This document shows positions 26,105 to 50,413 of a stretch of DNA of 64,000 bases, piece by piece. The first letter of the stretch is position 1. Every line of letters starts with the position of its first letter. Under the pieces are notes generated by a model. It did no database searches and was not told the origin of the DNA. It saw only the letters and a list, made by a program, of their open reading frames with translations. Source of the stretch: Vicinamibacteria bacterium (lineage in GTDB: Bacteria > Acidobacteriota > Vicinamibacteria > Fen-336 > JAGNNV01); the NCBI GenBank assembly GCA_031392925.1, contig JANMVV010000009.1, forward strand, positions 7,979 to 71,978, given 5' to 3'. The position numbers and the translations under genes were made by a program.

Positions 26105-26306
26105 GGGTAGTGGTGGGAGGGGGTTGCTTCGTCGCAAGTACCAACGGAATGGCTCCTCGCAATGACGTAGGGAAAAACAGCCGATAGTGGGGAAGGCCTG
26201 CGGGCCGACAGCCGGAGACCCTATTGGGTCTTTTTCCCAACGTCATTGCGAGGAGCTATTCCGTTGGCGATGCGACGAAGCAACCCCCTCCCACCACTAC
26301 CAACCC
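26105..26306. repeat. about 200-bp near-perfect long palindrome (arms about 63 bp, spacer about 73 bp); repeat element
   Basis: Left arm 26105-26167 GGGTAGTGGTGGGAGGGGGTTGCTTCG...CCTCGCAATGACG. Its reverse complement recurs at 26241-26306 with about 56/60 identity. The spacer is itself partly self-complementary. A related single arm is at 46004-46063. Confidence 0.6.
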
Positions 26307-26376
26307 ATGTATCGCGGACTTACGCAAGACACTGGCGGCCCGCGATCGCGCGCGAGTTATCGTGTACCCACCGCGC

Positions 26377-28233
26377 ATGCTCCAACCCTCCCGTCTCCTC
26401 CGGCTGAGCCTCGTGGGCGCATCGGCCCTGCTGCTTCAGGCCTGCGGGGAATCGATCGTGAACGAGGGCCGACCCGGAGCCAGCATCATCGTGCCCGCGG
26501 GCGCTCCGGTCGAGGTCATGCGGGCGGCGAAGGAGCTCCAGACCTACGTCTTCAAGACCTCAGGGGCGGAACTCGCGATCCGGACCGACGACGCGCCGCG
26601 AACCGAGCGGGTGGAGATTCGCCTCGCGGTCACTCCGATCGGGATCACCGCGGGTGGAGATCCGACGACCCAGCTCGTGCACCAGGACGGTTACACGATT
26701 CAGAGCACCGGCCGGATGATCACGATCATGGGCGGCTCGCCCCGCGGGACGCTCTATGGCGTCTACGACTTCGTCGAACGTGTGCTCGGCGTGCGCTGGT
26801 TCATGCCCACCGATCTCGGCGAGGACCTCCTCCCCGCGAGGACGATCCTGGTCCCGGAACTGAACGTGGTGAAGAACCCCGCATTCCCGTCGGTGAGCGG
26901 CTTCACCTGGGCGGGAAGCCCGGGAGCCGAGGACTGGGAGCTCCGGTCGCGGGTTCGTGTCGGCAAGGCGGTGAGCTTCGGTCACAACTGGTACAACATC
27001 CACCGGTACTCCAGGGAAACTTTCGACAAGGACCCCGAGATGTTCGCCATGGTCGGGGGCAAGCGCGGGTACAGCAGCCAGTTGTGCACGGGCAACCCCA
27101 ACGTGGTCAAAGTCACGGCGGAGGCGGCTCGCCGCTACTTCACGGAGAATCCCGATGCGCCGCTTTTCTCCATCAGCCCCAACGACGGAAACGGCTGGTG
27201 CGAATGCGACCGGTGCCGGAAGATCGATGAGTTGTACGGCATCACCGACGGCAGCCTCGCCGATCGTTTCGTTCATTATGCCAACGAGGTTCTGAAAGAC
27301 CTCGAAAAATCCCATCCGGACAAGAGGGTCGGGATCTACGCCTACGCCGAGCACACCGTTCCCCCGAAGAAAGCGAAACCGCGACCCAACTACGAGACCG
27401 CGCTCACCCACCAGCCGTGGGCCTTTTGCCACGTGCACGCGATCGAGGATCCGTCATGTCCGGCGAACCGCGAGTTCCTCAGTTACCTCAAAGGCTGGCT
27501 GGCGCTCACGCGACACGTGGGCGTCTACGAGTACTACGGCCACTTCTTCGCCTTCACCCCCTGGCCCATCGTCCATTCGATCCGCCGCGACATTCCCCTC
27601 TTCAAGAAGCTCGGGGTGGAGCGGTTCATCAGCGAGACCCAGCAGAACTGGGCCAACCAGGGGATCAACTTCTACGTGGCCGCAAAACTCGTGGAGGACC
27701 CGGCCCGCGATGTCGACGCCCTCCTCGGCGAGTACTTCTGGCGGTTCTACGGCAAGGCCAGGGATCCGATGCGCCGCTACTTCGATTTGTGGGAGGACGC
27801 GATGCTGCAGACCGCCGCGGCCGGCGATCGCGGCTACGCCTGGCAGTCGATGTTCACACCTGCGCTGGTTTCGGAGGCGGGCCTGCTCCTGAAGCAGGCC
27901 GAGGCCCTCGCCAAGGCCGACACGGTGAAGGTCCAGGCCCGGGTGGCGTTCGCGCGCACGGGCTTCGGCTACACCGAGGCCTACACGCAGATGCTGGAGG
28001 CGACGCGTCGAAACGATCGGGCCGCGGTCCTCTCGTGGTCGGAAGAGGCGCAGAAGCGGATCAAGGCCACCGAAGGCTCGGCCCCGCAGGCCTTCTTCGT
28101 CTCTCTCGCGATCGACCAGACCCGCTATATCGCCAACAACATCCTCGCGCGGGGGGTGCTGCCCTGGGTGGCGCTCAAGCCGGTTCCCTTCCCGACCGCC
28201 ACCAAGACGCCCGGCCCGCCTACCATTCCTTGA
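26377..28233 (+). CDS. DUF4838-like lipoprotein, putative glycoside-hydrolase-like
   Basis: Start trimmed to MLQPSRLLRLSLVGASALLLQACG (lipobox LQAC). Conserved Cys cluster NDGNGWCECDRC. The DUF4838 assignment is from memory and tentative. Confidence 0.5.
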   Translation: MLQPSRLLRLSLVGASALLLQACGESIVNEGRPGASIIVPAGAPVEVMRAAKELQTYVFKTSGAELAIRTDDAPRTERVEIRLAVTPIGITAGGDPTTQLVHQDGYTIQSTGRMITIMGGSPRGTLYGVYDFVERVLGVRWFMPTDLGEDLLPARTILVPELNVVKNPAFPSVSGFTWAGSPGAEDWELRSRVRVGKAVSFGHNWYNIHRYSRETFDKDPEMFAMVGGKRGYSSQLCTGNPNVVKVTAEAARRYFTENPDAPLFSISPNDGNGWCECDRCRKIDELYGITDGSLADRFVHYANEVLKDLEKSHPDKRVGIYAYAEHTVPPKKAKPRPNYETALTHQPWAFCHVHAIEDPSCPANREFLSYLKGWLALTRHVGVYEYYGHFFAFTPWPIVHSIRRDIPLFKKLGVERFISETQQNWANQGINFYVAAKLVEDPARDVDALLGEYFWRFYGKARDPMRRYFDLWEDAMLQTAAAGDRGYAWQSMFTPALVSEAGLLLKQAEALAKADTVKVQARVAFARTGFGYTEAYTQMLEATRRNDRAAVLSWSEEAQKRIKATEGSAPQAFFVSLAIDQTRYIANNILARGVLPWVALKPVPFPTATKTPGPPTIP

Positions 28234-29356: not shown

Positions 29357-29422
29357 TTTATTGGATAAAGGCTGCTTTCGCCTCACCTCTTGCGGTCTAC
29401 CGCACAGACGGGCCTATACTTT

Positions 29423-30661
29423 TTGGTTAAGGACGCTAAAACCCTGAGGAAACTCTTCTTCTGCCTCGTGATGGCAATCGGCCTCGCCGTTCTGCCCATC
29501 GACGCCTCCCCGTTCCTGGGGGGCACGGAATCGCTTGCCCTGGCCGCGATCACCCCGAAGTTTTCGGTGGTGCGCGGTCAGATCGAGCGGGGGAAGACGC
29601 TCGCCGCCGCCCTCTCGCGCGTGATCAGCGATCGGGAGATCCACGACCTCGTCCAGACCGCCCGCCCGAGCTATGACCTCAAGGATGTCCGCCCGGGCCA
29701 GGCCTTCCGCGTGTCGCTCTCCGAGGACGGGAAGCTGCACACGTTCGCTTACGCCATCGACGAACTGCGCACGCTGCGCGTCTCGAAGCGGGTGGATGGC
29801 CTCCACTCGGATATCGCATCCCGTCAGTACGAGGTGCGGGTGGGAACCGCCGCCGGCGTCATCGAGTCCAGCCTCTTCGAGACCATCGACTCGATCGGCG
29901 AGAAGGACGAACTCGCCATGGAACTGTCAGAGATCTTCGCCTGGGACATCGACTTCAACACGGCGATCCAGCGGGGCGACACGTTCCGGGTGGCGGTCGA
30001 GAAACTCTACCTCGACGGTGAGCTCCGCCGGTATGGAAAAGTCCTGGCCGCCGAGTTCGTGAACTCCGGCCGGACCCTTCGCGCCGTGCGCTTCGAAGGC
30101 CAGGACCAAACCACCGCCTACTACGAACCCTCGGGCGAGCCCCTGAAGAAGGCATTCCTGAAGTCGCCCCTGCGGTTCACGCGGGTGAGTTCCAGCTTCT
30201 CGGGTGGCCGCTTCCATCCCGTGCTGCATGTCACCCGCGCCCACAACGGCACCGATCTCGCCGCGACCTACGGAACTCCGGTGCGCGCGATCGGCCACGG
30301 CACCGTCACCACGGCGGGCTTCGAGAGCGGCTATGGGAACCTGGTCGCGGTCCGTCATGCGAACGGGTACACCAGTTACTACGGCCACCTGTCGAAGATC
30401 CTGGTGCGCGCCGGCCAGCGCGTCGCGCAGACCGATCTCGTGGGTCTGGTGGGAGCCACCGGTCTCGCCACCGGACCTCACCTGCACTACGGCATCATGA
30501 GGAACGGGGCGTGGGCCGATCCGATGCGCATCCAGAGTCCGCCCGCGGAGCCTCTGAGGGCGGAGGATCGGCCGGCTTTCCAGGAACTGGCGAAAGTGTC
30601 TTTGGCCCAATTGCCTCCCCAACCTGTGAACCTTAGAGCGGCGAACGACTCACGGCGTTAG
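29423..30661 (+). CDS. M23 family metallopeptidase (LytM-type) with N-terminal membrane anchor
   Basis: C-terminal HNGTDLAA...GATGLATGPHLHYG are the M23 Zn-ligand motifs. Start is uncertain (TTG 29390, TTG 29423 or ATG 29471). Confidence 0.8.
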   Translation: MVKDAKTLRKLFFCLVMAIGLAVLPIDASPFLGGTESLALAAITPKFSVVRGQIERGKTLAAALSRVISDREIHDLVQTARPSYDLKDVRPGQAFRVSLSEDGKLHTFAYAIDELRTLRVSKRVDGLHSDIASRQYEVRVGTAAGVIESSLFETIDSIGEKDELAMELSEIFAWDIDFNTAIQRGDTFRVAVEKLYLDGELRRYGKVLAAEFVNSGRTLRAVRFEGQDQTTAYYEPSGEPLKKAFLKSPLRFTRVSSSFSGGRFHPVLHVTRAHNGTDLAATYGTPVRAIGHGTVTTAGFESGYGNLVAVRHANGYTSYYGHLSKILVRAGQRVAQTDLVGLVGATGLATGPHLHYGIMRNGAWADPMRIQSPPAEPLRAEDRPAFQELAKVSLAQLPPQPVNLRAANDSRR

Positions 30662-30670: not shown

Positions 30671-31324
30671 ATGAGCTCTCGGGGTCTGGTGCGACGTGGC
30701 CTCCCACCCCTCCTGGCTCTCGGCGCAGCCGCGATGGTGCTGCCCCTTCACGGCTCGGCGCGGGCCGCTTCGCCCGTGGTCACGGTCGGCGCAGGCGGAG
30801 CGAAGATCAAGGTGACCCAGGCGTCGCTGTCGGAAGCAATCGACGCCCTCGCGCGCGCCGCCGGCTTCCGGGTGACCTACGAGGGCGCGCGGCCGACTGT
30901 CATGCTCTTCAACGCCGAGATCGACACCCCCACCGTGGCCCAGACGCTCTTCCGCCTCATCGACGGGCAAAATCTCAACTACGCGGTGATGTTCGACCTC
31001 AGCGGAAAGCAGGTCACGTCTCTCCTCGTCCTCGGCATCCCGCCCAAGACCGGTGGAGCGCCCGGTGTACCTGCAGGCGCCGCGCGGCCTCAGCCCTTCA
31101 CGCCGCCCCGCGGGTCGAGAAGCGACATGCCGGTGCTCGATGACGATCCGGCCGAACCCGAACCGGAATCGACGCCGCAGCCGACGACGGCGCCCCCACC
31201 CGCGGCTCCTCCGAGGGGCAGTCCGGGCGGACCGACATCACCCGCCCCGCCCTCCCCTTTCACACCAAGGCCTCTGTTCGGCAGCCCGTTCGGTCCGCGC
31301 CCCTCTCCTTCGCCCTCACCGTGA
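30671..31324 (+). CDS. secreted protein with STN-like (secretin/TonB N-terminal-like) domain and Pro-rich tail
   Basis: 217 aa. Signal peptide. KIKVTQASLSEAIDALARAAGFRVTYEG fits the short STN domain pattern. The C-terminal third is a P/S/T/G low-complexity tract. Starts 10 nt after the M23 peptidase. Confidence 0.4.
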   Translation: MSSRGLVRRGLPPLLALGAAAMVLPLHGSARAASPVVTVGAGGAKIKVTQASLSEAIDALARAAGFRVTYEGARPTVMLFNAEIDTPTVAQTLFRLIDGQNLNYAVMFDLSGKQVTSLLVLGIPPKTGGAPGVPAGAARPQPFTPPRGSRSDMPVLDDDPAEPEPESTPQPTTAPPPAAPPRGSPGGPTSPAPPSPFTPRPLFGSPFGPRPSPSPSP

Positions 31325-31951
31325 CACTCGAGGCGTCTCGAGGTCGGGGGCTCGCTGGCCGCCGCCTTGAGGCGGAGCCTGGTTGGGCGCTCGGGGTGGC
31401 CCGCTCACCGCGGCCGACTGACCGCCCACGATGAACGGGATATTCGGAGCGAAGACCCACTGGTTGTAGGCCAGATTCCCGTTCACAAGACGAAGGCCGG
31501 TTTCCTTCGAGAGGCTTGCCACGCCGGCGATCGGCCCGGAGGGAGCGCCTGAGTTGCCGCCAAAAACCGGCGTCGGCGCAGGAGTCGGCGTTGGTGTCGG
31601 CCGGCCCGATCCGCCGAGCGACCCGCCCGGCCCGCCCGGTCGCGCCGGCACCACTTCACCGGGACGCACGATGCGCCACTTCCCATCCGCGCTCATCGGG
31701 TCCTTGTAGGCCTGGCGCAGATACTTGCCCTTGACGAGCTGATCGAAGGAGGTGGGGAGCGCGTTGCCGTTCTTGCGCTGAAACCGGGCGATGGCCGCGG
31801 AGATCTGGCGTCCCCTGAAGATGAGCTCCTGCTCCTTGTCGTCCTTCACGAGGTAGCGCCAGGAAGGCATCGCAAGCATGAGAGCGAAGGTCATGATCGC
31901 GATCATGGCCAGGAGCGCAGGCATGGAGAAACCCGACTCGTTCCGGCTCAC
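31316..31951 (-). CDS. atypical pseudopilin-like protein (GspG-like core, non-canonical prepilin motif, Gly/Pro-rich tail)
   Basis: 211 aa. N-terminal GFSMPALLAMIAIMTFALMLA is a prepilin-like hydrophobic segment lacking Glu at +5. FDQLVKGKYLRQAYKDPMSADGKW resembles the GspG core. Confidence 0.5.
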   Translation of the reverse strand: MSRNESGFSMPALLAMIAIMTFALMLAMPSWRYLVKDDKEQELIFRGRQISAAIARFQRKNGNALPTSFDQLVKGKYLRQAYKDPMSADGKWRIVRPGEVVPARPGGPGGSLGGSGRPTPTPTPAPTPVFGGNSGAPSGPIAGVASLSKETGLRLVNGNLAYNQWVFAPNIPFIVGGQSAAVSGPPRAPNQAPPQGGGQRAPDLETPRVSR

Positions 31952-32631
31952 TGCTTCTTTCCGAACGCCTTCGCGGTGGAGCCTTGTTTCTCCGCCGTCT
32001 CGAAGTCCTTGACGACCCTGCGAATGTAGCCGCGGGTCTCGCCATAAGGAGGAACGCCGTTGTACTTCGCGACCGCACCCGCGCCCGCGTTGTAGGCGGC
32101 CAGAGCCTCGGCCACGCGCCCCTCGTATCTCTCCAGCAACCGGCGCAGCAGGCGGGCGCCCGCGTCGATGTTCCGGGCAGGGTCGAAGGCATCGGCAACA
32201 CCGAGTTCTCTGGCGGTTCCCGGCATGAGCTGCATCACGCCCCGAGCGCCCTTCGGTGAGACCGCGTCCGGATTGAGGGCCGACTCGGCCCGCGCCACCG
32301 CGCGGACCAACGACCGCGGCAACGCGTACCTGTGGGCCGCATCCCCCACCATCTGCTCGATGGTTCGCGGCGTTGAATCGACAACGCCCGCGGGCGAAGC
32401 GACGGGCACGACCGGCTCGGCGTCGACCTCCTCGTCGGGCTCCACGCGCTCGATATCGATGGCGCGGACCTCGATGTCGCCGCCCTTCAGAGTCGCGACG
32501 CAGGCGGACGCGTTGCAGGAGAGCGCGTCGATCTTGAGCGTCTTGCCCACTCGGAGGTAGAGCGTGTCGGCCGACGCGGCGCCCGGGCCCACGGCCCAGA
32601 TCAGGATGGCCACCAGGAAGAAGGCTCTCAC
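31948..32631 (-). CDS. lytic transglycosylase (SLT domain), secreted
   Basis: 227 aa. Signal peptide. GVMQLMPGTARELG and AYNAG are SLT catalytic-domain motifs. Confidence 0.8.
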   Translation of the reverse strand: MRAFFLVAILIWAVGPGAASADTLYLRVGKTLKIDALSCNASACVATLKGGDIEVRAIDIERVEPDEEVDAEPVVPVASPAGVVDSTPRTIEQMVGDAAHRYALPRSLVRAVARAESALNPDAVSPKGARGVMQLMPGTARELGVADAFDPARNIDAGARLLRRLLERYEGRVAEALAAYNAGAGAVAKYNGVPPYGETRGYIRRVVKDFETAEKQGSTAKAFGKKQ

Positions 32632-32638
32632 GACGAGG

Positions 32639-33352
32639 CTACGGGGCGGCCAGAACCTGGATGGTGATGTCGGCGATCGTGCCCGTGGAGGGTGCCAACA
32701 CCTCGACCTTGACGGTGATCGTGCCCGCCGTGGTCCGGGAGGTCTGGACTCGATTCACCGCATCGCCGTTGTTGTTGGTGGTCACATCCGTTCCGTCCAG
32801 CAGGCGATCGGTCGCGGGGTTGTTCGAAACCGAGAACCGGACAATGATTCCCGGGATCGGGTTTCCCTTGTCGTCGAGGACGGTGGCCCGGATCGACGCG
32901 ATGGACTTGCCCAGTCTCAGGTCGATGGTCGGGTCGATGGCCTGGGTTTTCACCTGGCTCACCCGGGGCGCCCCGATAACGATGTTCTCCGCTTTGACGT
33001 TGACGGGGCCGGACGCTGCGGTCACCACCGCGGTACCGGAACGCGCATCGGAGATGAGGTTCACCCGGGCCACCCCATCGTTGGTCTTCGCCTGCTCCTG
33101 GATCCTGCCAAGGGTCGTGAAGAACTGAATGACCGTCCCGTCCGGAACGGGTGTGCCCGCCTTCTCGGTGGCGAGCACCGAGACCACCGCGCTGGCGCCG
33201 TTGGCGGCGATGAACGAAGGGTTCACGAAGATCTGAAGGGTGGTGCCGTCAGGCGCGCTCAGGATGGCCTGGCCGCAGGACGCGAACGCCATTCCCGCAA
33301 TGATGAGCGCAACCAGGCCGCCCACCGTCCTTCTCCTGACCCGACGTGTCAT
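32639..33352 (-). CDS. lipoprotein with tandem bacterial Ig-like (Big/invasin-type) domains
   Basis: 237 aa. Lipobox FASC. Repeated motifs TAVVTAASGPVNVKAE and ATVLDDKGNPIPGIIVRFSVSN...TAGTITVKVEV are typical of Big_1-type Ig domains. Confidence 0.5.
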   Translation of the reverse strand: MTRRVRRRTVGGLVALIIAGMAFASCGQAILSAPDGTTLQIFVNPSFIAANGASAVVSVLATEKAGTPVPDGTVIQFFTTLGRIQEQAKTNDGVARVNLISDARSGTAVVTAASGPVNVKAENIVIGAPRVSQVKTQAIDPTIDLRLGKSIASIRATVLDDKGNPIPGIIVRFSVSNNPATDRLLDGTDVTTNNNGDAVNRVQTSRTTAGTITVKVEVLAPSTGTIADITIQVLAAP

Positions 33353-35757
33353 GGGGTCACCGTAACACGAACGGCTCCAGCCGACGGAACCGGGCCCTGT
33401 GCAGTTCCAGAGCTCAGGGAGAGACTCTCGACGAAGATCGTCGCCTCGCCTGGACGGGTGGCCCGAAAACCGACGATCGCGACCGTGCCGGTTCCACCGG
33501 CAAGCGGCGTGAGCCGTTTGAACTGGGCCGAGGCCCGCGAGCCTTCGAACTGCCGCTCGGCCAGGACCTGGACGCCGTCGACGGAGAGAAGCTGGCCCGC
33601 GGCCATCTCCACGAACTCGAGGGCGGGCGAGTCCGCGCGCACCGTGATGCTCACATCCTTCAGCGAGCGCGCGTTGAAGAGGTTCACGGCCACGCGCTGA
33701 ACCTCGCCGACCCTCATCCGGACCTCGGTGCGGTCCCAGGCGGAGCGAGAAGCGAGCGGGCCCCCCGCAGGAGGCGGTGTAGGCGCTCCCCGCGTGACCG
33801 GATCGAGGGCCGAACCCGACGGCGACGCGGTCTCACTGGGAGGAGCGGGAGACGCGGATGTCGTCGCCGAAGAAGTCAGCGACGCGACCGGCGTCGGCAC
33901 GGGAGTGGGTGATGCGGCCGGAGTCTCCGCGCGAGCGGCGGGCGCCGGCGTTTCGGGCTCTGGCTCCACCTCCTCGCGTCCGAAGAGCGGACGCACGCCG
34001 GGAATGCGGAGATTGTTGCGGAGACCGAGATACAAGGGCTCCACGTCCTCGGCCACGACGTTCGGCGCCCGGAGAATGTGCGGGGTGAGCGAAATGAGAA
34101 TCTCGATGTCCTGGTCCGAGGCTTGGTGGCTGCCCAGGATCTTGTTGAGAATCGGGATCGAATCGATGCCCAGCGCGCCCTTGATCGCGCGCGCCTCACG
34201 GCCCTGGATCAGGCCGCCGATGACCGCGGTCACGCCGTCGGTGAGGCGAAGGGTGTTCTCCAGCTTGCGGGTCAGGAACGTCGGATAGTTGGTTGCGCTG
34301 GCGCCGGTGCCGAAGACCTTGTCCTCACCGAGCGCCGAGAACTCGGCCTTGAACTCCATGGTGATCTCGTCGTTCGCGGTCACCTTGGTCTTGTCGATTT
34401 CGAGATTGACGCCGACCGTCTTGTATTGAGCGCTGGTGGTTCCGCCAAACCCACCGGAGGGTTGGCCCGGCACGGACTGCTGGGCATAGCCCGGATAGAA
34501 CTGAGGAATGGGAATGTCGGTGCCCACGTTGAATGTCGCCTTCTTGCCCTCGAAGGCCCGAACCTTGGGCGAGGACAGGATCTTCACCATGGTGTCGTCG
34601 TGAAGGAACTTCGCGAAGACGCCCGAAGGAATCTGCACGACCCAGTCGGAGGCGTTGAGCGAGGAGAGGAAGATGGCCCTCAGGTTTGTCAGTCCCCCGG
34701 CCACCTCTCCCGCCACCCCGGTGGGCTGCAGTTCGACGCCCGCCTGATAGTTGGAGAGTTGCAGGCCGTAGTCCTTCGCCTTCGTCCGGTTGATCTCGAG
34801 GATCTCGACTTCGACCAGGATCTCGCCCTTGGGCTTGTCGTTCGAACGGATGAAGCGATCGGCGAGTGCCATTTCGTCCGGAGTGGCGATGACGGTAATG
34901 GAGTTCGTGGTGTCGTTCTTCGCCACCTTGGTCTGGGCGCCGAGCGCGGTGCGCAGCGCGGCCTCGAGCTCCTTGGCCTCGACGTTTTCGAGGTAGAAGG
35001 TGCGCATGACCTGATCGTCCCAGCGCTGGCGGGTCTGAGCGTTGGTGTCGTCGAAGATCAGGATGGTGTTGCGATCGAGGACCCGGTAGGCCTTCTTGTT
35101 GATGAGGCCGATCTGGTCGAGCGCCTCCTGGAAGGTGACGCCGGTCAGGTTGGAGGAGATGACCTTGTCCTTGCCCTGCAGATCCGGGTCGAACACCACG
35201 TTGACGCCGACCAGAGCCCCGAGAGTCTGATAGATCTTCTCCAGCCGCTCGGTCATGTTGAGCTTGATCGGAACCGGGGACCGCGGCGAGAGCAACGGCA
35301 CGGGCAGGGTCGCATCGGCGGGCCGGCGCCCGGCGAGGTCCTTCTGCTGACGCTTGTCCGCGGCGATCTTGTCGATCTGGGCCTGGAGGACAGCCATGTC
35401 GTCGGCCGCTGCCCGGTTCGACGAGTCGTAGCCGACCGCGATCCCATACTCTTCCTTCGCCTTTTCGAGGTTCCCGGTCTGGAGATTCCTGCGAGCCTTT
35501 CCCGTGTGATCCCGGCTGGCCTGGATCTTCGCGTTCTCGAGGGCGATCTTGTACTTGATGTTCCTCGGGGAGGCGGTCAGGGCCTTGGTGAAGCGGGCCA
35601 CCGCCATGTCCCAGTCGCCCTTTTCCGAAAAGCGCTGCCCGCCCCGATAGGCGTTGCTGGCGGCGCAGGCGGAGGAAAAGATGGCGAGCGCCGCCACGAC
35701 CCCCAAGGTCGCGGCTCGGAAGCGCGGGCTTCGTTCACGGTTCAATCGGGTCTTCAA
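33349..35757 (-). CDS. gspD: secretin (GspD/PilQ family), lipidated, with N-terminal TPR-like region and about 240-aa C-terminal extension
   Basis: 802 aa. Lipobox FSSACAAS. The secretin C-domain is VIGGLIQGREARAIKGALGIDSIPILNKILGSHQASDQDIEILISLTPHIL. N-terminal helical TPR-like segment. A Pro/Thr/Ser linker plus beta-rich domain follow the secretin core. Confidence 0.85.
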   Translation of the reverse strand: MKTRLNRERSPRFRAATLGVVAALAIFSSACAASNAYRGGQRFSEKGDWDMAVARFTKALTASPRNIKYKIALENAKIQASRDHTGKARRNLQTGNLEKAKEEYGIAVGYDSSNRAAADDMAVLQAQIDKIAADKRQQKDLAGRRPADATLPVPLLSPRSPVPIKLNMTERLEKIYQTLGALVGVNVVFDPDLQGKDKVISSNLTGVTFQEALDQIGLINKKAYRVLDRNTILIFDDTNAQTRQRWDDQVMRTFYLENVEAKELEAALRTALGAQTKVAKNDTTNSITVIATPDEMALADRFIRSNDKPKGEILVEVEILEINRTKAKDYGLQLSNYQAGVELQPTGVAGEVAGGLTNLRAIFLSSLNASDWVVQIPSGVFAKFLHDDTMVKILSSPKVRAFEGKKATFNVGTDIPIPQFYPGYAQQSVPGQPSGGFGGTTSAQYKTVGVNLEIDKTKVTANDEITMEFKAEFSALGEDKVFGTGASATNYPTFLTRKLENTLRLTDGVTAVIGGLIQGREARAIKGALGIDSIPILNKILGSHQASDQDIEILISLTPHILRAPNVVAEDVEPLYLGLRNNLRIPGVRPLFGREEVEPEPETPAPAARAETPAASPTPVPTPVASLTSSATTSASPAPPSETASPSGSALDPVTRGAPTPPPAGGPLASRSAWDRTEVRMRVGEVQRVAVNLFNARSLKDVSITVRADSPALEFVEMAAGQLLSVDGVQVLAERQFEGSRASAQFKRLTPLAGGTGTVAIVGFRATRPGEATIFVESLSLSSGTAQGPVPSAGAVRVTVTP

Positions 35758-35769
35758 CTTTCCTCGGGT

Positions 35770-36309
35770 CTAGTTCGTCTTGAGGGGCAGACGGCGGGTC
35801 CTCCCGGACCCCATCTCTTCGATTTCCGCCGACTCGGCGCCGATGCGGATGACGCGAAACGCGTTGCCGAGCACCTGCCCCACCTGACCGACCAGGAGTA
35901 TCTCTCCATCTTTGACGAAGGAGGCGATCTTCCGGCCTGCCCCATTATCAACGATCCCGATGAGGCTGAGGTTGAGGGGGGGCCACGGAGTGGGAGTGGG
36001 CGGGGCCTCGGGGGTTGGAAACGGAGTGGGACCAGGCAGGGGGGGAAGCTTGATCACGGGCGTCGGCAGGGGATTCTGATCAGCGCGCGAGTCGCGACCG
36101 AACTTGAAGACGTCGCGAGAGGGAGGGGCAGCGAGAGGTTCGGGCCGGCCCAGCCGGTCGAGACCGATGGCCGGAACCTCCGAGCCCGCCTCCAGGCGAA
36201 GCGCCGCCTTCTCGGGCGTGTCACCCGATCTCCCAAAGGCGCTCCAACCCAGAGCCGCCGTGAGGACGAAAAGCAGCACGGCGAAAAGCTCCTTCCGCCC
36301 CATCACCAT
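35770..36309 (-). CDS. PilP/GspC-like secretin-interacting protein (TM anchor, Pro-rich linker, HR-like beta domain)
   Basis: 179 aa. N-terminal TM, PTPVIKLPPLPGPTPFPTPEAPPTPTPWPP linker, and C-terminal LIGIVDNGAGRKIASFVKDGEILLVGQVGQVLGNAFRVIRIG resembling PilP/GspC-HR domains. Confidence 0.45.
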   Translation of the reverse strand: MVMGRKELFAVLLFVLTAALGWSAFGRSGDTPEKAALRLEAGSEVPAIGLDRLGRPEPLAAPPSRDVFKFGRDSRADQNPLPTPVIKLPPLPGPTPFPTPEAPPTPTPWPPLNLSLIGIVDNGAGRKIASFVKDGEILLVGQVGQVLGNAFRVIRIGAESAEIEEMGSGRTRRLPLKTN

Positions 36310-36728
36310 TCGCTGTAGGGCACGCCATTCAAACCGACCTGGCCCGAAGCGCTTTTGACGTCGAAGACACCGGTCATGGCCTCGCCGCTGGTCGCAGCGG
36401 TCTCGGGCGGTATCTCAACCCAGGGCTCGGAGGAGATGGGGTCGGGCGGGATCTTCCGGAGGTACCCGTCGGTGACCAGGGCCTCCAGGGTTTCCGGGTA
36501 CTTCCCTTTGTCGGACTGGTACTGATCGATCAGATCGCGCAGGCGATAGAGGTTCTCGCGAAGCACGGCCTCGCGGGCGGAGAGCACGGAGTTGCGGTAG
36601 TTGGGCAGGGCGATCGATACCAGGATGCCCATGATCGTGATGACCACGATCAACTCCAGAAGGGTGAAGCCCTTCGATCGATCGTTTCTTCTTCGTGATG
36701 CGGGAGATGCGGAATTCAGTGCCACCAT
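36303..36728 (-). CDS. gspG: type II secretion major pseudopilin GspG
   Basis: Start trimmed to MVALNS...KGFTLLELIVVITIMGILVSIALPNY (canonical prepilin cleavage/methylation motif with Glu+5). YQSDKGKYPETLEALV...YLRKIPPDP is the GspG signature. Confidence 0.8.
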   Translation of the reverse strand: MVALNSASPASRRRNDRSKGFTLLELIVVITIMGILVSIALPNYRNSVLSAREAVLRENLYRLRDLIDQYQSDKGKYPETLEALVTDGYLRKIPPDPISSEPWVEIPPETAATSGEAMTGVFDVKSASGQVGLNGVPYSEW

Positions 36729-37207
36729 CACCAGTCCTTCAACTTTGTGCCGTCGAGCGCCCTTCCATCGGCCAGGGAGTAGACATCGTAAACGTTGTCG
36801 CCGCACCACGAGGAAGAATCGTGTTCGTCCTGATAGCAGTGCATCCCCCATTCGGCCTTTCCAGAAAAGGGATCCAGGGGAATCCGCCTGAGGAACTTCA
36901 GCTTGATTCCCGGACGCCCCACCTGATTGACACCTTGGACCATGGTCTCGAGCGATTCCGGGTAACCCTCGCTCCCCAGCTTCACATCGGTCCCCCCGAT
37001 CTGCCCCCGGTCGACGCCATCCTTGAACCGGTCGATGGCGGTCCGGATCTCGCGGAGCGAGCGCCGAAGTTCGATCTCCCTCTGCCGCTCACGCGTGACC
37101 CTTGAAAGGGGCAGGACCGCCGCGGCCAGAATGGCGATGATGGTCGCTACCGCGATCACCTCGAGGAAGGTGGTGCCGCGCTCACTGCGTCGCACGGGGG
37201 TCTCCAT
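36728..37207 (-). CDS. GspG-like pseudopilin, second paralog
   Basis: 159 aa. RGTTFLEVIAVATIIAILAAAVLP prepilin motif. GYPESLETMV...RRIPLDPF resembles the GspG core. Overlaps its neighbours by a few nt. Confidence 0.65.
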   Translation of the reverse strand: METPVRRSERGTTFLEVIAVATIIAILAAAVLPLSRVTRERQREIELRRSLREIRTAIDRFKDGVDRGQIGGTDVKLGSEGYPESLETMVQGVNQVGRPGIKLKFLRRIPLDPFSGKAEWGMHCYQDEHDSSSWCGDNVYDVYSLADGRALDGTKLKDW

Positions 37208-37745
37208 CCTTGAAGATGGCCGAGAGCTTCAGATTCATCCTCGCTCCATCCTCTTCCTGCACGAGGGCCATCTGATCGACCACGATGAAGCGCCTCGCGG
37301 ACTCGATGCGAGCCAGGAAACCGGTGAGATTCGCGTAGCTCCCCTCGAGCGGCAGCGTGACCTCGCAGCGGACGAGATCGGTGCCCCGGACCTTCGAGAT
37401 GGAATAGGCGCTCCTCTTGGGCTTGAGCCCCGCGTCGCGGGCGAGCCGTTCGATCTCCCGCTGGGCGCCGAAGAGGTCCTCGTTTCGATATTTGAGATGG
37501 TCGCGGCTCAGGCTCTCGATGTCCTGGCGGTTCTGGGCCAGAAGCGCTTTGCGCACCGCCACCTGCGACCACACGCTCTCGAGCCCGGCCCGGCGCGTCG
37601 ACACTGCCTTCGCGCGGTTCTCGGCCCGGCGAACGGAGGTGAGCCTCGGCCAGGTGAGGGCAGCGAAGAGTAGGGCATTGGCGATGAGCAGAAGCGCACC
37701 GATCCAGGCCAGGCGCAGCCTTGTCTTCGAAGAGCGCAGGCTCAT
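37182..37745 (-). CDS. PilO/GspM-like inner-membrane assembly protein
   Basis: Start trimmed to MSLRSSKTRLRLAWIGALLLIANALLFAALTW (187 aa): TM, coiled coil, then periplasmic domain. ATGA overlap with the upstream gene. Confidence 0.45.
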   Translation of the reverse strand: MSLRSSKTRLRLAWIGALLLIANALLFAALTWPRLTSVRRAENRAKAVSTRRAGLESVWSQVAVRKALLAQNRQDIESLSRDHLKYRNEDLFGAQREIERLARDAGLKPKRSAYSISKVRGTDLVRCEVTLPLEGSYANLTGFLARIESARRFIVVDQMALVQEEDGARMNLKLSAIFKDGDPRATQ

Positions 37746-38344
37746 CGCGTCTTCCTCGCGACGGGCGGGGAGGAGGGCGAAGGGAGGGGGCGGTTGTCGG
37801 GATCGAAGACCACCTCCATCACGAACTCCGTCCCCTCCTGGGTGTCCGACAGCGATTTGAGCGACGCGTTCGAAAACACGGGCGAGGCGTCGAGGGTTTC
37901 CGCGAGGGAGAAGGCCGCATCCTTGGTCCGGGCCACCCCCGACAGGTCGATCAGCATGCTGCGGGCGCCGCGGGGGGTGGTGGGCGAGATCCGGTCCAGC
38001 CGGACGTCGTCGGCAAGGGCCCCCTCCAGTTCGGCGAGGAGCCGACGCCACGGGAACACGCGTCGATCCACCAGCTCCTTGTATGCGAGAAGACGCACAA
38101 CCTCGGACGCTTCGATCTTGAGCGGAGGTTCCCTGGCAATGCCCTCTTCGAGCTCCGCGATCCTGGCCTCGTCCTGCCGGACCGCGCGCACGGTGTTGGC
38201 CTCCTCGCCCGAAACGAGCCGGCTCAAGAAGCGCCCGTGCAGGAAGGACGCCAGAAGGGCCCCGCCGAAGAGAAGTCCGGACAGGAGCCAGAGAAGCCTC
38301 TCGTTCCGGAAAGGCCGAAGGGCCAGATTCGTGGATGCCATCAT
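37742..38344 (-). CDS. PilN/GspL-periplasmic-like inner-membrane assembly protein
   Basis: Start trimmed to MMASTNLALRPFRNERLLWLLSGLLFGGALLASFL (200 aa): short cytoplasmic N-terminus, one TM, coiled coil and periplasmic domain. Confidence 0.45.
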   Translation of the reverse strand: MMASTNLALRPFRNERLLWLLSGLLFGGALLASFLHGRFLSRLVSGEEANTVRAVRQDEARIAELEEGIAREPPLKIEASEVVRLLAYKELVDRRVFPWRRLLAELEGALADDVRLDRISPTTPRGARSMLIDLSGVARTKDAAFSLAETLDASPVFSNASLKSLSDTQEGTEFVMEVVFDPDNRPLPSPSSPPVARKTR

Positions 38345-38349
38345 TGGGG

Positions 38350-39299
38350 TCAGTAGGCTCCAAGCAGGGCCAGCGCGGGCGAAGCCGAACGCTCCACCGC
38401 GGTGGGCATCCCCGCCACCACCAGATGCGCGGGGGGCTTTGCTCGTTGAGCCACGCACCCGAAAGCCGCACTGATGTCGTCGCTCAGTGCTTCGAACCAT
38501 CGATCCGAGGCGTGGACGACCGCGGAGGCGAGCCGGGTTCCCGCAAGGCGATCCCGCCAGAAGACCGCGGTGGAGGCAATCTCCCGCCGCACCTCTTCGA
38601 GACTTCGCGCCACCGTGGCGTCGAACGAACGGATGGACACCGGCCACCCCTGCCGCATGAGAGTCAGGGTCAGCCAGATGGGATCGTGGCGAACCAGGAG
38701 GGCGTCTCCTTCGACCTCCAGTCCCCGGAGGAGCGCCATCGACGAGGTTTCAACCGAACCGACATCGAGACCGAAGGCCTGGCCCACCTGTTCGTAGGCG
38801 CCGAGAACCGCGCTCGAAAAGCCGACGGCCAGGACCGGATCGGTTAAGGAGCGGGGCCAGGCCGCGACCACCCTGACCTCAGCGGGGGGAAACGGGAGGA
38901 GCTTCTGCATTCGGAAAGCGATCACCGCGTCCCGCCGCTCCGGCTCGGACCGGACCTCATCCTGCCCGAACAGACGGAAACGCGCCACCACGTCGGGCAC
39001 GACCAGCGCCGCGCGGACCGAGGGCGTAGCACCGATCTTCGACAGGACGCGCTTCGCGGCGTCGCGCATCTCCTCCTTGTTGACGAAGCCCGGATCATCG
39101 AGGGACGGGACGAAGGTTCCTTCGCTCAACGGCTCGCTGACCAGCGCGCGAAGCTCCACCTTCCCGCGCTTCGATTCCACCCGGGCGCCCACCAGGGCGA
39201 CGGAGGAGAATTCGAGCGCTATCTGAGCGCCCTCCGGGTCCAGGAAGAAGTGCCGGAGCCTTTCCACCACGGACCTCGGCCGCGCCGCGGGGCCTCTGA

Positions 39300-39303
<4 letters not shown>
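38350..39303 (-). CDS. PilM/GspL-cytoplasmic-like actin-fold assembly protein
   Basis: About 318 aa from the GTG that overlaps the gspE stop (GTGA). Begins ...VVERLRHFFLDPEGAQIALEFSSVALVGARVE, like the PilM N-terminus. Start codon choice is uncertain. Confidence 0.5.
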
Positions 39304-40937
<1,634 letters not shown>

Positions 40938-40939
40938 GG

Positions 40940-42148
40940 CTAACCTCCTCCTCGCGACTGGAGGGCCGAGAAGGCCTCGAACATCGGCAGGTAGAGCGCC
41001 AGCACCATGGAACCGATGATCACGGCCATGAAGACGAGGAGAACGGGCTCGACCAGGGCCAGGATGGTCTGGACCTTCACCTCGAGATCCTCGTCATAGA
41101 AATCCGCGACCTGGTTCAGCATCTCGCCAAGGGCGCCCGTGTTCTCGCCCACCCGGATCATCTCCACGGTGAGCGGCTCGACCTGGCCGGTGGCATCGAG
41201 CGCCAGCGAGAGGCTCTTGCCTTCCTGAATCTGAGGCACGGCGGCCGCGGCCGCCGCCGAGATCGCTCGATTCCCCACCGACGCGGAAGCGACGCCGAGC
41301 GCCTGCACCAGGGGGAGGCCGCCGGAAAGAAGAGTGGAGAGGCTGCGCGCGAGCTGGCTGGTGGAGTAGGTGCGCATGAGCGCTCCGAAGAAGGGGATAT
41401 TGAGGATCCACCCATCGAACCGCTCCCGATTCGCGGAGGCCTGCAGCCAGGAGGCAAAGGCAAAACCAGACACCGCGAGGAGCGCCAGGAGAGGCAGGCT
41501 CCATTGCCGCGCCTGATCGGACAGGCCCATGAGGACGCGCGTGGGCAGGGGCAGTTGAGCGCCGAGGCTCCCATAGAACTCGGTGAACTGGGGAAGGACG
41601 CGGGTGAGCATCACGTACATGAGGCCGAACATGCCGGAGAAAAGCACCATCGGATAGACGGACGCCGCAATGACCTTCTTCTTGATCGCCTGGTTGAGCT
41701 TCACATACGAAACGAATCGCCGCAGCACCGCCTCGAGATTGCCGCTCCGCTCGCCCGCAACGAGGCTCGCTGAAAACATCTGCGGGTACAAGGCGCCCTC
41801 CTGCCGGAAGGATTCCGAGAGCGCGGCCCCGGATTTGATCCGATCCCGCACCGCGCCGAGCGATCGCTTGAACAAGGGATCTCTCTGGCGCTCGACCATG
41901 AGATCCATCGACTGCGCAAGGGGAAGGCCGGCCTTGAGAAGAGCGGCCAGTTCCTGGCCGAAGAGCTGCAGGTTTTCGGGCTTGACCCGCGGCGCGCCGA
42001 ACCGGAACCCCTGCGTCCTCTTTCGGTGAGAGAAAAGGAACAGGCCCTGACGCAGCACGTCGGCTCTTAAAGCCTCCTCATTCGGGGCATCGAAACTCCG
42101 TTCGACGATTTCCCCGGCGGGCGTGCCGACCTTGCAGATGTACTCCAT
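40940..42148 (-). CDS. gspF: type II secretion / type IV pilus platform protein (GspF/PilC family)
   Basis: 402 aa. Two GspF repeats, three TM segments, and a conserved N-terminal region MEYICKVGTPAGEIVERSFDAPNEEALRADVLRQGLFLF. Confidence 0.9.
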   Translation of the reverse strand: MEYICKVGTPAGEIVERSFDAPNEEALRADVLRQGLFLFSHRKRTQGFRFGAPRVKPENLQLFGQELAALLKAGLPLAQSMDLMVERQRDPLFKRSLGAVRDRIKSGAALSESFRQEGALYPQMFSASLVAGERSGNLEAVLRRFVSYVKLNQAIKKKVIAASVYPMVLFSGMFGLMYVMLTRVLPQFTEFYGSLGAQLPLPTRVLMGLSDQARQWSLPLLALLAVSGFAFASWLQASANRERFDGWILNIPFFGALMRTYSTSQLARSLSTLLSGGLPLVQALGVASASVGNRAISAAAAAAVPQIQEGKSLSLALDATGQVEPLTVEMIRVGENTGALGEMLNQVADFYDEDLEVKVQTILALVEPVLLVFMAVIIGSMVLALYLPMFEAFSALQSRGGG

Positions 42149-42182
42149 AAGTTATTGGAGCAACTGAGTGTAGCAGCCGAGA

Positions 42183-44015
42183 CTAAACGCCGGACAGAGG
42201 AAGGAAGTCGAGAAGGACCCGGGCGCCGTGAACCACCGCGGCGAGGAGAAGAACGAGAGCCAGGGGCAATGAAACGGCCTCGGAGCCGAGCGTCTTAAGC
42301 CACCGCAGGTCGAACACCGCGCTCAGGTTCTGACCCGGAAAGGAGCCGTTGTCGCCTTCATCGAGAACCGCGGCTCCGACAATGGCCAAAAGCGGCAACA
42401 AGGCGAGCAGGTACCGGACCTCGATCGGGGAAACGAGAGCGGCGATGGCGAGAAGAAGACCGGTGAGGGCAAGGCTCCGGGCCAGGGGCAGGATGGGACG
42501 GATGCTCCGCACGAGAATCGAAAGAGCGATGAGCGCAACCAGCGGCCAGCCCGCCCCGTCCACGATCTGATTGGGGAGACGCCACGGATCGAAGACGCCG
42601 GAGCTTCCGCCGCGCTCGCCCAGAAGGCGCGGGATCTGCGCGGCGATCATGGGCAGGAAGGTGGCGAAGTAAAAGCCCGAAAGAACCACGCCCAGAAGCA
42701 ACGGCCTGAAGGCCGGGTCATGCCGATCGCGAGCGATGACGAGGGTCACCAGAAGCAGGGTGGAGAGGACGATGAAGGAGGAGAGGTGGGCAGTGGCGGA
42801 GAGCGCGACCAGGAAGGCGAGGAGGAGCCCCCGGGCCTTTCCCTTTCGCGAGATTCCCGCGGTTACGAGGAATAGGACGAAGATGGCCTGGGCGAAGACG
42901 TTGGAGAGGTTCCCAAACGCCATGGTCCGGAGGTTCACGGGGGCAAAGGCCCACAGCATCAGCGCCGCCCCGGCGAGGCCGGCGGAGGCCGGGCCGAGAA
43001 TCAGGGCCAGACCCACGATCGAGAGAGCGGAAAAGAAGGCCGCGCCTTCGCGCACCACCCGGACGTTCGAGACCTCGGGCGAGACGAACGGCGTGAGCAC
43101 GCCGTAGAAACTGAAGCCATACGGGATCTCGAAGGGCGGCTTGTGGTCCGTCCGGCTGGTGGGGAATCGATTCCCTCGCGCGACCTCGCGGAGTTTGTTC
43201 CCGTGCAGTTGAACGTCGCCCTGGATCACCAGTGGCGACGGAGGCAGCACGGCGTGAACGGTGAGCGCCATCAGGACCGCGATCTGCAGGAGGCCGCGAG
43301 TGAGGGCGCTGCCTCGCGCGTACCTCGAGAGCATGGCGGCGATCGCGCTCGAAGCACTCAAGAGCACCGTGCATTCGACGAGCCACGAGGATCGCCACAG
43401 TCCGGCGGGCAGGACCATGGCCAGAAACAGGATGGGGGGAAGAAGCGCTACCGCCGCGCTCTGACCGAAAAGAACCTGGGTGGCTATCGAAATCAGGGTC
43501 ACCGCGCCCAGAGCCATCCACAAGCGGACGGGAACACCGGCCGGCCGGCCGGCCATCGACGGAACGGGCTCCACCTTGAGCGAAACGAACTGCGTGCCGA
43601 GGACGCGGTTGGTGGCGGCGAAGCCCTCCGTTCCGATTCCAAACATCAGCGACGAGCCGCCGAGACGCGTCTGCGCGGTGAAGCGCCGTTGCCCCGGCTG
43701 CAGGGTTCCGATCAAGGCGCCGTTCGCGGTGAGATTCATTTCGGTCCGGTGGTCGCGCACCTCGAGATCGATGTCGACGAGTCCCGGACCGACGCCTTCG
43801 AACGAAAACGCGGCCTTCGGACGGGTCCACCGGATGGCTCCACCGCCGATCTGGTTCTCCCGCGGCTCGAGGCCTTCGGTCACGAAGGCGTCGTCGGTGC
43901 CGTAGGCAAGACTCGCAAGCGAGGCCGGCCGGCGAGAGACGAGCGAGGGCACCGAGAGAATCGCCACGATTCCTGCGAGAATCAGGACGAACGCTGCGGA
44001 TCGAAGCGAGTTCAT
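42183..44015 (-). CDS. large polytopic membrane protein of unknown function (N-terminal periplasmic domain plus more than 10 TM helices)
   Basis: 610 aa. First TM at residues 8-24, an approximately 190-aa soluble region, then many hydrophobic helices. Ends 34 nt upstream of gspF on the same strand. No family recognised. Confidence 0.5.
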   Translation of the reverse strand: MNSLRSAAFVLILAGIVAILSVPSLVSRRPASLASLAYGTDDAFVTEGLEPRENQIGGGAIRWTRPKAAFSFEGVGPGLVDIDLEVRDHRTEMNLTANGALIGTLQPGQRRFTAQTRLGGSSLMFGIGTEGFAATNRVLGTQFVSLKVEPVPSMAGRPAGVPVRLWMALGAVTLISIATQVLFGQSAAVALLPPILFLAMVLPAGLWRSSWLVECTVLLSASSAIAAMLSRYARGSALTRGLLQIAVLMALTVHAVLPPSPLVIQGDVQLHGNKLREVARGNRFPTSRTDHKPPFEIPYGFSFYGVLTPFVSPEVSNVRVVREGAAFFSALSIVGLALILGPASAGLAGAALMLWAFAPVNLRTMAFGNLSNVFAQAIFVLFLVTAGISRKGKARGLLLAFLVALSATAHLSSFIVLSTLLLVTLVIARDRHDPAFRPLLLGVVLSGFYFATFLPMIAAQIPRLLGERGGSSGVFDPWRLPNQIVDGAGWPLVALIALSILVRSIRPILPLARSLALTGLLLAIAALVSPIEVRYLLALLPLLAIVGAAVLDEGDNGSFPGQNLSAVFDLRWLKTLGSEAVSLPLALVLLLAAVVHGARVLLDFLPLSGV

Positions 44016-48239: not shown

Positions 48240-48351
48240 AAAGATCCGAGAATAGCTCCAAGGGAGACTCAAACGCGCAGCCGGAGGCGCGATCCGGGCA
48301 CAAAAAGGGGGCGGCAAGGAGCCGCCCCCGGCGCTCATCTGGAGGGCGGAA

Positions 48352-50403: not shown

Positions 50404-50413
50404 GGATGTCTCC

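Follow-up and report, generated by a model that had tools for sequence, protein, structure and literature searches.

In this study, we analysed a 64,000-nt stretch of DNA (hereafter the window) from a Vicinamibacteria (Acidobacteriota) metagenome assembly (GCA_031392925.1, JANMVV010000009.1, positions 7,979-71,978 of the forward strand), in which 13 co-directional open reading frames (ORFs) lie at 31316-44015 on the minus strand. They encode, in order, a 610-aa membrane protein, a GspF-type platform, a GspE/PilB-type ATPase, PilM-, PilN- and GspM/PilO-like proteins, two pseudopilins (psp1 and psp2), a PilP/GspC-like protein, a secretin, an Ig-like lipoprotein, an SLT-family lytic transglycosylase and a third pseudopilin (psp3). 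Since the 13 genes are packed with overlaps of 4-26 nt or gaps of 2-34 nt, their spacing fits a single transcription unit. We consider it probable that this one operon encodes a complete envelope machine of the type IV filament superfamily, belonging to the "unorthodox" or "atypical" type II secretion system (T2SS) family and likely secreting folded proteins.

Gene inventory and composition

An earlier annotation made from the letters alone (the first-pass annotation) had listed these genes as a non-canonical locus of T2SS and type IV pilus (T4P) parts, and its inventory was borne out: the ORFs were found where it had placed them, their domains were recovered with Pfam and NCBIfam models, the PilM-like protein was recognised by its fold, and the 610-aa ORF does end 34 nt before gspF. 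It had also described the composition of the locus as mosaic. The GC content speaks against this, being 65.4% (0.654) in the locus and 64.9% (0.649) in the remaining window, as does the uniform GC at third codon positions (GC3) of 0.78-0.89 for every locus gene; 1-kb segments inside the locus range from 0.617 to 0.686 in GC, within the spread of the window (mean 0.650, sd 0.019). Promoter scans for sigma-54 and sigma-70 gave nothing exceeding chance.

Proteins of the window were compared with Pfam and NCBIfam/TIGRFAM profile models, the equivalog cut-offs of which are given in bits. Comparison loci were taken from a sister acidobacterial clade (L022 and L023), Ralstonia (L025, CP015851.1), Paraburkholderia (L026, AP028202.1), the gspC-O cluster of E. 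coli K-12 (L027) and metagenome relatives of the locus (L029, L036, L038, L039, L047 and L108).

ATPase, platform and alignment complex

The inner-membrane platform of GspF/PilC type (40940-42148, minus strand, as are all locus genes below) carries two PF00482 domains (E 8e-51) and is 30% identical to E. coli GspF. The assembly ATPase of the GspE/PilB superfamily (39300-40937) combines T2SSE (PF00437, E 3e-131) with a GspE-N/MshEN-type N-terminal domain (MshEN, E 4e-19) and a CxxC...CxxC tetracysteine motif; a c-di-GMP-binding MshEN motif was not evident in its N-terminus on inspection by eye. Its core is 46-47% identical to PilB/PilF, 43% to E. coli GspE and 41% to HofB, and the top score among solved structures compared by sequence was full-length PilB.

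The PilM-like cytoplasmic protein (38350-39303), whose gene starts with a GTG in a 4-nt overlap with the gspE stop, has no Pfam match. Its AlphaFold2 (AF2) model (pLDDT 86.6) shows an actin fold, and the best Foldseek matches were PilM (5eox, E 1e-17; 2ych, TMq 0.73), above the GspL cytoplasmic domain 1yf5 (E 2e-9, TMq 0.48). From this model, the protein is predicted to be the unfused counterpart of the GspL cytoplasmic domain. It is followed by a PilN-like bitopic membrane protein (37742-38344; PF05137, E 8.6e-9), the N-terminal motif (T/L)NLAxRPFRNER of which is kept among relatives and resembles the PilM-binding peptide of PilN (2YCH). The third protein, also bitopic (37182-37745), matches T2SSM_b (PF10741, E 1e-7) and GspM_XpsM (NF040576, E 2e-9, under cut-off) better than PilO (E 5e-3). 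Thus, of the three separate PilM-, PilN- and PilO-like genes that had been proposed to stand in for GspL and GspM, the unfused PilM and PilN do replace GspL, while the third protein scores higher as GspM than as PilO.

Pseudopilins

Two pseudopilins with the GspG signature had been noted, and both gave N_methyl and GspG-like matches. Psp1 (36728-37207; TIGR01710, E 6e-5) has a cleavage site between G and TTFLE, Glu5 and two Cys; psp2 (36303-36731; N_methyl, E 4e-9), cleaved between G and FTLLE, comes closest to GspG among the three, with 32% identity to the E. coli protein across 138 aa (E 8e-15), and is a candidate for the major pseudopilin. Psp3 (31316-31951), which matches no Pfam model, had been called an atypical pseudopilin, and it is a genuine one: it is paralogous to psp2 (30% identity, E 2e-7) with a GspG-like core, a Pro/Thr/Gly-rich insert and a Y..WVF terminus, but it lacks Glu5 (cleavage between G and FSMPA). 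Its orthologues in the two sister-clade loci, Ralstonia and Paraburkholderia likewise lack Glu5. PilA models match the pilins of the window at the N-terminus only, and the GspG model matches best.

The absence of GspH-K and PilT from the window, as reported before, was upheld, for only three prepilin-type N-termini were present, all GspG-like, and no PilT was found. A paralogue search within the window recovered no second secretion ATPase, PilT, secretin paralogue or further prepilin N-terminus. Among the Gsp proteins of E. coli K-12, only D, E, F and G gave length-wide matches in the window; GspH and GspJ match solely the common prepilin N-terminus of psp2, and GspC, I, K, L, M and O had zero matches in a search of low cross-phylum sensitivity.

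Secretin and associated envelope proteins

The 179-aa PilP/GspC-HR-like protein (35770-36309; no Pfam match) has an anchor at the N-terminus, then a Pro-rich linker and, at the C-terminus, a beta domain of some 60 aa. For the PilP/GspC-like call of the first-pass annotation, the motif of this C-terminal beta domain speaks in favour, while the best match among PDB profiles, PilP, is weak (E 0.11). The same domain aligns with the fourth "hypothetical" protein of the Ralstonia and Paraburkholderia loci described below.

The secretin (33349-35757; Secretin, E 5e-27; Secretin_N, E 4.5e-10) is laid out from N- to C-terminus as a signal peptide with a Cys, a TPR (residues 33-84), N0/N1, the secretin domain, a Pro/Thr-rich linker and a cohesin-like domain, and has no AMIN domains. 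The Cys after the signal peptide is kept in relatives and supports the previously suggested lipidation, pointing to a putative lipoprotein. In comparison with PDB sequences, GspD scored 62 bits and PilQ 30. The secretin C-terminus (33349-33960, minus strand) is in itself of note, as a cohesin-type domain there follows a long Pro/Thr/Ala linker; Pfam Cohesin gave E 5e-11 in the Paraburkholderia secretin (L026 16055-16391) and E 0.16 in the window secretin alone.

The Ig-like lipoprotein (32639-33352) has two Big_1 domains (PF02369, E 2.5e-13) and the lipobox FASC, and keeps its place beside the secretin both in the sister clade and in metagenome relatives, whichever of the two gene orders these show. 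The secreted SLT-family lytic transglycosylase (31948-32631; PF01464, E 1.3e-29) retains the ES...GxMQ...AYNAG motifs, including the catalytic Glu-Ser. Both had been reported to sit inside the operon, and they do. Dedicated SLTs had been described as typical of T3SS, T4SS and flagella rather than T2SS; the type IV filament superfamily does have precedents, namely BfpH and the PilT of R64.

Neither a canonical T2SS nor a type IVa pilus

The first-pass annotation had proposed a comparison of Gsp with Pil models, and in it no component reached an NCBIfam/TIGRFAM equivalog cut-off for T2SS or type IVa pilus (T4aP). Scores (cut-offs) were 542 (630) bits for GspE (TIGR02533) and 536 (676) for PilB (TIGR02538) on the ATPase; 318 (424) for GspF (TIGR02120) on the platform, with 254 for the Myxococcus PilC model; 126 (351) for GspD (TIGR02517), 88 for MshL and 77 (284) for PilQ (TIGR02515) on the secretin; and 52 (89) for GspG (TIGR01710) on psp2. 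The GspF, GspD, GspG and GspM models each outscored their T4P counterparts on the locus proteins. By these profile scores, the locus does not qualify as a genuine Gsp T2SS, nor as a T4aP.

A related system in Ralstonia and Paraburkholderia

In a tblastn search covering annotated plasmids and chromids, the best matches of the ATPase lay on megaplasmids of Paraburkholderia and Ralstonia solanacearum (50-53% identity over the full length, 58-60% in the core). A neighbour-joining tree was built from 112 ATPases over 389 core columns, comprising the nearest representatives at 50% identity from a full-database search together with references. In this distance-based tree with few labelled references, the ATPases of the window, of both sister-clade loci, of an NC10 "pulE" cluster and of Ralstonia/Paraburkholderia group in one clade. 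PilB (Geobacter, Myxococcus), PilF (Thermus), E. coli GspE and HofB fall outside it in every one of 100 bootstraps, and a quartet test also gave 100/100. The named neighbours of the ATPase were the NC10 "pulE" and an Acinetobacter GspE/PulE-family protein, the rest being mostly unnamed metagenome proteins. The phylogeny of ATPase and secretin that had been called for is thus provided for the ATPase, which falls in the unorthodox-T2SS clade apart from the PilB and GspE references.

The Burkholderiales loci have the order GspG - GspF - GspE - four "hypotheticals" - secretin - three small pilin-like genes. In Ralstonia, an "unorthodox T2SS" with seven core genes and four hypothetical genes between gspE and gspD has been noted (PMC5080846, after Genin & Boucher 2004). 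Of these four hypotheticals, we found the second to be a PilN, the third to have a weak T2SSM_b match (E 0.0055, under cut-off) and the fourth to share the PilP-like C-terminal domain; with the first, the protein at the M position in Paraburkholderia, hhalign of the PilM-like profile was not significant. The Paraburkholderia-type secretin carries a lipobox Cys, TPR, STN/N0, Secretin_N, Secretin and a C-terminal Cohesin (E 5e-11), and the Burkholderiales secretin aligns with that of the window from residue 1 to about 780, the alignment with the Paraburkholderia protein extending across its Cohesin domain. After it come three genes orthologous to psp1 (39-40% identity along the whole protein), psp2 (43%) and psp3 (25-32%), and in psp3 the missing Glu5 and the C-terminal Y..WVF are common to both sides. 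Directly upstream of the Paraburkholderia system lies a 1865-aa protein with GH2, three F5/8 type C and Ig domains (L026 2404-8001, plus strand), and a 1685-aa hypothetical protein occupies the same place in Ralstonia (L025 2478-7535, minus strand); both giant proteins are candidate cargo.

Distribution and coherence of the module

Among close relatives in Vicinamibacteria, synteny of the 13 genes is perfect, and it extends to the flanking aldolase, MqnC-like and other genes; block and flanks are syntenic in at least nine Vicinamibacteria contigs, the proteins of which are 55-96% identical. With flanks as well conserved as the block, this comparison is uninformative on which genes belong to the module. 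The sister clade is more telling. There the ATPase is 80%, the secretin 41-46% and the PilM-like protein about 30% identical to that of the window, the upstream context differs (a two-component system, SpoIIE and SmpB), and a separate PilP-like gene is missing from both loci. Since an 11-gene core F-E-M-N-O-psp1-psp2-secretin-Big-SLT-psp3 persists in this clade despite the different upstream neighbourhood, the Ig-like lipoprotein, the SLT and psp3 are, on gene conservation, judged integral to the module. The SLT is thus retained amid a different genomic context, and in L108 it lies upstream of gspF.

A psp1 profile scan of metagenomes listed more than 600 matches, which is a lower bound. Long metagenome contigs show two arrangements, the acidobacterial order and a Ralstonia-like order with the pseudopilins after the secretin, and contigs of the latter still carry Big-like, SLT and psp3 genes. 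A search of genome contigs with the PilM-like profile returned Vicinamibacteria only and is uninformative on wider distribution.

A similar set of genes has been described in Geobacteraceae. Pelobacter carbinolicus has two "Pul" clusters with the order pulF-E-M-N-O-P-pulQ (a secretin lipoprotein)-pulG-oxpG, and a third pseudopilin, TklG (Aklujkar 2012, PMC3543383, Table S4), and Pul, not Gsp, was said to be required for OmpB secretion in Geobacter (PMC3543383). On a comparison of annotations only, the gene set of the window is the Pul/OxpG set, and the order is the same except that two pseudopilins stand between O and P.

The 610-aa membrane protein and flanking genes

The first gene of the operon (42183-44015, minus strand) encodes a polytopic membrane protein of 610 aa without any Pfam or NCBIfam match. 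Its AF2 model (pLDDT 84.3, pTM 0.88) suggests that the membrane domain is a GT-C-fold glycosyltransferase-like core, preceded at the N-terminus (about residues 30-150) by a predicted periplasmic carbohydrate-binding module (CBM)-like beta-sandwich. Of its 77 homologues, all are from Vicinamibacteria save one at 31% identity, and the invariant residues of the family include D267, H271 and D476. As modelled, the protein appears to represent a new GT-C-like family without a Pfam or NCBIfam model, nearly restricted to Vicinamibacteria so far. The gene is absent from both sister-clade loci, while L029 and L038 have related genes at a distance of 3.5-4 kb upstream from gspF. Synteny was considered as evidence that this gene belongs to the machine and was discounted: the flanks are equally conserved within Vicinamibacteria, so synteny alone does not tie the gene to the machine, and the sister clade lacks it. 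It is probably a co-transcribed neighbour specific to the sub-clade.

At the other end of the locus, a secreted 217-aa protein is encoded convergently (30671-31324, plus strand). It has no Pfam match, a Pro-rich tail and a weakly N0/STN-like domain (hhalign against the secretin N0 region: E 7e-4, probability 26%). The end of its gene overlaps psp3 by 9 nt, and the gene is always convergent with the last pseudopilin gene. The protein is 33% identical to the product of the same-position genes in the sister clade (L022 19199-19957 and L023 19266-19976, both minus strand), the upstream context of which differs, and genes of this type also occur in L029, L036, L039 and L047. Next to it, also convergent, is an M23 peptidase (29390-30661, plus strand; Csd3_N2 and Peptidase_M23, Pfam E 1.5e-32), 55% identical to the same-position gene of L023 and present in L029 and L047. 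Both genes hold their position in the two acidobacterial clades. By analogy, an M23 peptidase beside the system may represent a recurrent peptidoglycan-remodelling link, or a coincidence.

Several further features of the window were recorded. A 719-aa protein (11491-13650, minus strand) with LptC-like and LptA/LptD_N-like regions, neighboured by rpoN (9110-10738), rapZ (7270-8220) and ptsI (4810-6651), may, judging from these regions, be a fused Lpt bridge component. A 617-aa ORF (2623-4476, minus strand) has a coding-type GC3 of 0.81 and no Pfam match. Past the aldolase lies a respiratory cluster (46489-53000, minus strand; L001 1-4843) with a Rieske protein, a cytochrome b/c fusion, CytoC_RC, DUF3386 and a cytochrome c, and then an ECF sigma factor (51918-52535). 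Possible exported hydrolases are found elsewhere in the window, none adjoining the system: a DUF4838/GH67N-like protein (26188-28233, plus strand), an S8 subtilase (59219-60571, minus strand) and a GDSL lipase (17622-19088, minus strand).

Discussion

Starting from the observed parts, folds, operon coupling and co-inheritance, and by reference to T2SS and T4P, a mechanism of folded-protein secretion can be proposed. A hexameric GspE/PilB-like ATPase would dock on the GspF platform and on the PilM-like protein, which in turn would bind the cytoplasmic N-terminus of PilN through the conserved (T/L)NLAxRPFRNER. PilN and the GspM/PilO-like protein would form a periplasmic alignment complex equivalent to an unfused GspL-GspM, and the PilP/GspC-HR-like protein would bridge this complex to the N0 domain of the lipidated secretin, which might pilot itself via its own pilotin-like TPR module. 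A prepilin peptidase encoded elsewhere would cleave the three short GspG-like pseudopilins, allowing a periplasmic pseudopilus to form with psp2 likely as the major subunit and the Glu5-less psp3 likely as tip, cap or initiator in place of GspH-K, as GspK also lacks Glu5. The pseudopilus would then push folded periplasmic proteins out via the secretin, and the SLT would open the peptidoglycan for assembly. More speculatively, the GT-C-fold 610-aa enzyme might glycosylate Pro/Thr-rich linkers in machine components (psp3, the PilP-like protein or the secretin) or in cargo, an analogy drawn from pilin-modifying GT-C enzymes.

Secretion is favoured over a pilus because four components score better with T2SS models, because the pilins are GspG-like and no retraction ATPase is present in the window, because a giant protein with GH2, discoidin and Ig domains adjoins the Paraburkholderia system, and because a secretion phenotype has been reported for Geobacter Pul, the attribution of which is disputed between papers. 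On this last point, the S2 table of Denise 2019 (PMC6668835) ties Mehta et al. 2006 to the canonical gspK-L-M-N cluster of Geobacter sulfurreducens, while PMC3543383 names Pul.

Several observations weigh against this overall reading. The cytoplasmic partner has a PilM fold, the ATPase is slightly nearer to PilB (46-47%) than to canonical GspE (43%), and the PilP-like assignment is weak (best PDB profile match PilP 4av2_M at E 0.11). The link to Geobacter Pul consists of gene names and order alone, and the papers conflict on which Geobacter cluster Mehta 2006 (OxpG/OmpB) concerns. The 610-aa gene is missing in the sister clade, and its conserved position is matched by equally conserved flanks. 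No prepilin peptidase was matched in the window with the E. coli K-12 Gsp set as queries, a search of low cross-phylum sensitivity, and no substrate was identified near the locus.

Part of this evidence would instead suit a pilus machine, in which a T4aP-like chassis of PilB, PilC, PilMNOP and secretin assembles a surface filament for adhesion, aggregation or motility. The preference of the cytoplasmic protein for PilM over the GspL cytoplasmic domain, the Pfam match and N-terminal motif of the PilN type, the closer identity of the ATPase to PilB than to GspE with full-length PilB as the best PDB match, and the labelling of many ATPase orthologues as PilB by JGI all lean that way, and the so-called T2SS of Bacteroidetes illustrates that function and phylogeny can diverge in this superfamily. 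We nevertheless regard a pilus as unlikely, though still a serious competitor to secretion, for the window has neither PilT/PilU nor a minor-pilin/PilY1 set, the pilins are short proteins matching the GspG model whose likeness to T4a pilins is confined to the N-terminus, the secretin, platform and third membrane protein score higher as GspD, GspF and GspM, and the ATPase clade excludes the PilB references.

A pseudopilus for DNA uptake (competence) is very improbable. Short pseudopilins with a secretin and no retraction ATPase nearby would be in keeping with such a system, as would the location of Geobacteraceae pul clusters near DNA-uptake and cell-division genes, e.g. comM fragments (Aklujkar et al., PMC3543383), but the window contains no ComEA, ComEC or DprA-type genes, the ComGA, ComGB and ComGC models score far under those for GspE, GspF and GspG, and the acidobacterial neighbourhood is metabolic and cell-wall related. 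Least credible of all is a recently acquired or decaying mosaic island of T4P and T2SS fragments, to which the mixture of T2SS and T4P models among the best matches might point, since a mosaic or horizontally acquired origin is contradicted by GC and GC3 values indistinguishable from the remaining window, all genes are intact and translationally coupled with no pseudogenes or mobile-element borders seen, and the block and its flanks are syntenic across Vicinamibacteria with the same parts co-occurring in distant lineages.

Beyond membership of the unorthodox T2SS family, we tentatively raise a broader proposal, to which we give rather less credence, that the family is a distinct and widespread class of type IV filament machine, apart from both Gsp T2SS and T4aP. 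It would be defined by its own ATPase clade, an unfused PilM/PilN/GspM platform, a pseudopilin trio capped by a Glu5-less member and a TPR-lipoprotein secretin, with an SLT and Ig-like lipoprotein added in soil lineages and a GT-C protein in Vicinamibacteria. Its range would span Acidobacteriota and Burkholderiales, probably NC10 and Geobacteraceae, and the more than 600 metagenome matches. If true, a fixed trio of short pseudopilins would replace GspG-K, the cohesin-like domain of a self-piloting secretin would tether or present cargo, and a GT-C family would glycosylate Pro/Thr-rich linkers.

Acidobacteriota rank with the most abundant bacteria in soil and are presumed polymer degraders, and their enzyme export is largely unstudied. 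As the operon is conserved across Vicinamibacteria and relatives of psp1 occur in hundreds in soil metagenomes, the operon is a prime candidate for the main route by which these bacteria secrete folded proteins. The sequence link also gives the orphan system of Ralstonia and Paraburkholderia a parts list, namely PilM-, PilN-, GspM- and PilP-like proteins and a Glu5-less cap pseudopilin, and offers genetically tractable organisms for the family. Current concepts of type IV filaments are not overturned; hundreds of "generic" systems are known, and specialists would be little surprised.

Comparison with known systems

With the canonical Gsp T2SS the locus shares homologous E (43% identity to E. 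coli), F (30%), G (32%, to psp2) and D (24%), a GspM-type third membrane protein and pseudopilins of GspG length and motif. The departures from the textbook gspC-M operon that had been pointed out, a gene order with F-E first, unfused PilM and PilN, and no GspH-K, all hold. GspL is split here into PilM-like and PilN-like genes, the window is without GspC, H, I, J, K and O, the secretin adds TPR and cohesin-like domains, and an SLT and an Ig-like lipoprotein are part of the operon. With T4aP the locus has in common the PilM fold (E 1e-17), a PilN domain with its N-terminal motif, a weakly PilP-like linker, and an ATPase 46-47% identical to PilB with a matching N-terminal domain. It differs from T4aP in that the window lacks PilT, PilU, a T4a major pilin and a minor-pilin/PilY1 set, the PilQ model reaches just 77 bits (cut-off 284), and the ATPase falls outside the PilB reference clades.

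The Pul/OxpG clusters of Geobacteraceae resemble the locus in starting with F-E, in having three pseudopilins and in a nearby M23 peptidase, the Pelobacter Pul-1 cluster being followed by ftsEX and an M23 peptidase (PMC3543383). They differ in that their pseudopilins follow the secretin, TklG is encoded elsewhere in the genome, and neither an SLT nor an Ig-like lipoprotein appears in their gene listing.

Compared with GT-C enzymes (PMT, STT3/PglB/AglB, ArnT, Aft), the 610-aa protein is without a family match and has an extra N-terminal CBM-like domain. TfpW is a pilin-modifying GT-C enzyme whose gene lies directly upstream of a pilin-type system, as does the 610-aa gene, which is lacking in most relatives of the system.

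Likeness in sequence links the locus to the unorthodox T2SS of Ralstonia and Paraburkholderia. Both sides share an ATPase clade (58-60% core identity), three orthologous pseudopilins of which the third lacks Glu5, a lipoprotein secretin that carries a TPR near its N-terminus and ends in a cohesin-type domain, and, between E and D, small genes for a PilN, a weakly GspM_b-like protein (E 0.0055) and a PilP-like protein, with no GspH-K and no fused GspL. By contrast, the Burkholderiales loci have an additional canonical GspG before F, which the window lacks, and place the three pseudopilins after the secretin. Their protein at the M position is shorter (241-275 aa) and showed no detectable similarity to that of the window, their GspF is just 28% identical, and a 10-kb range around them includes neither an SLT nor an Ig-like lipoprotein nor a GT-C gene. 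The first-pass annotation had held that a well-described subtype with the same gene order would make this an ordinary system; such a subtype does exist and its gene order is close to this one, but the literature mentions it without describing it well. The idea of a one-off hybrid of T4P and T2SS parts does not stand, for the parts list recurs in Ralstonia and Paraburkholderia, in hundreds of soil metagenome contigs and, by architecture, in Geobacteraceae. The locus is non-canonical, yet it is no isolated hybrid: it is an added member of a poorly characterised family, with lineage-specific additions.

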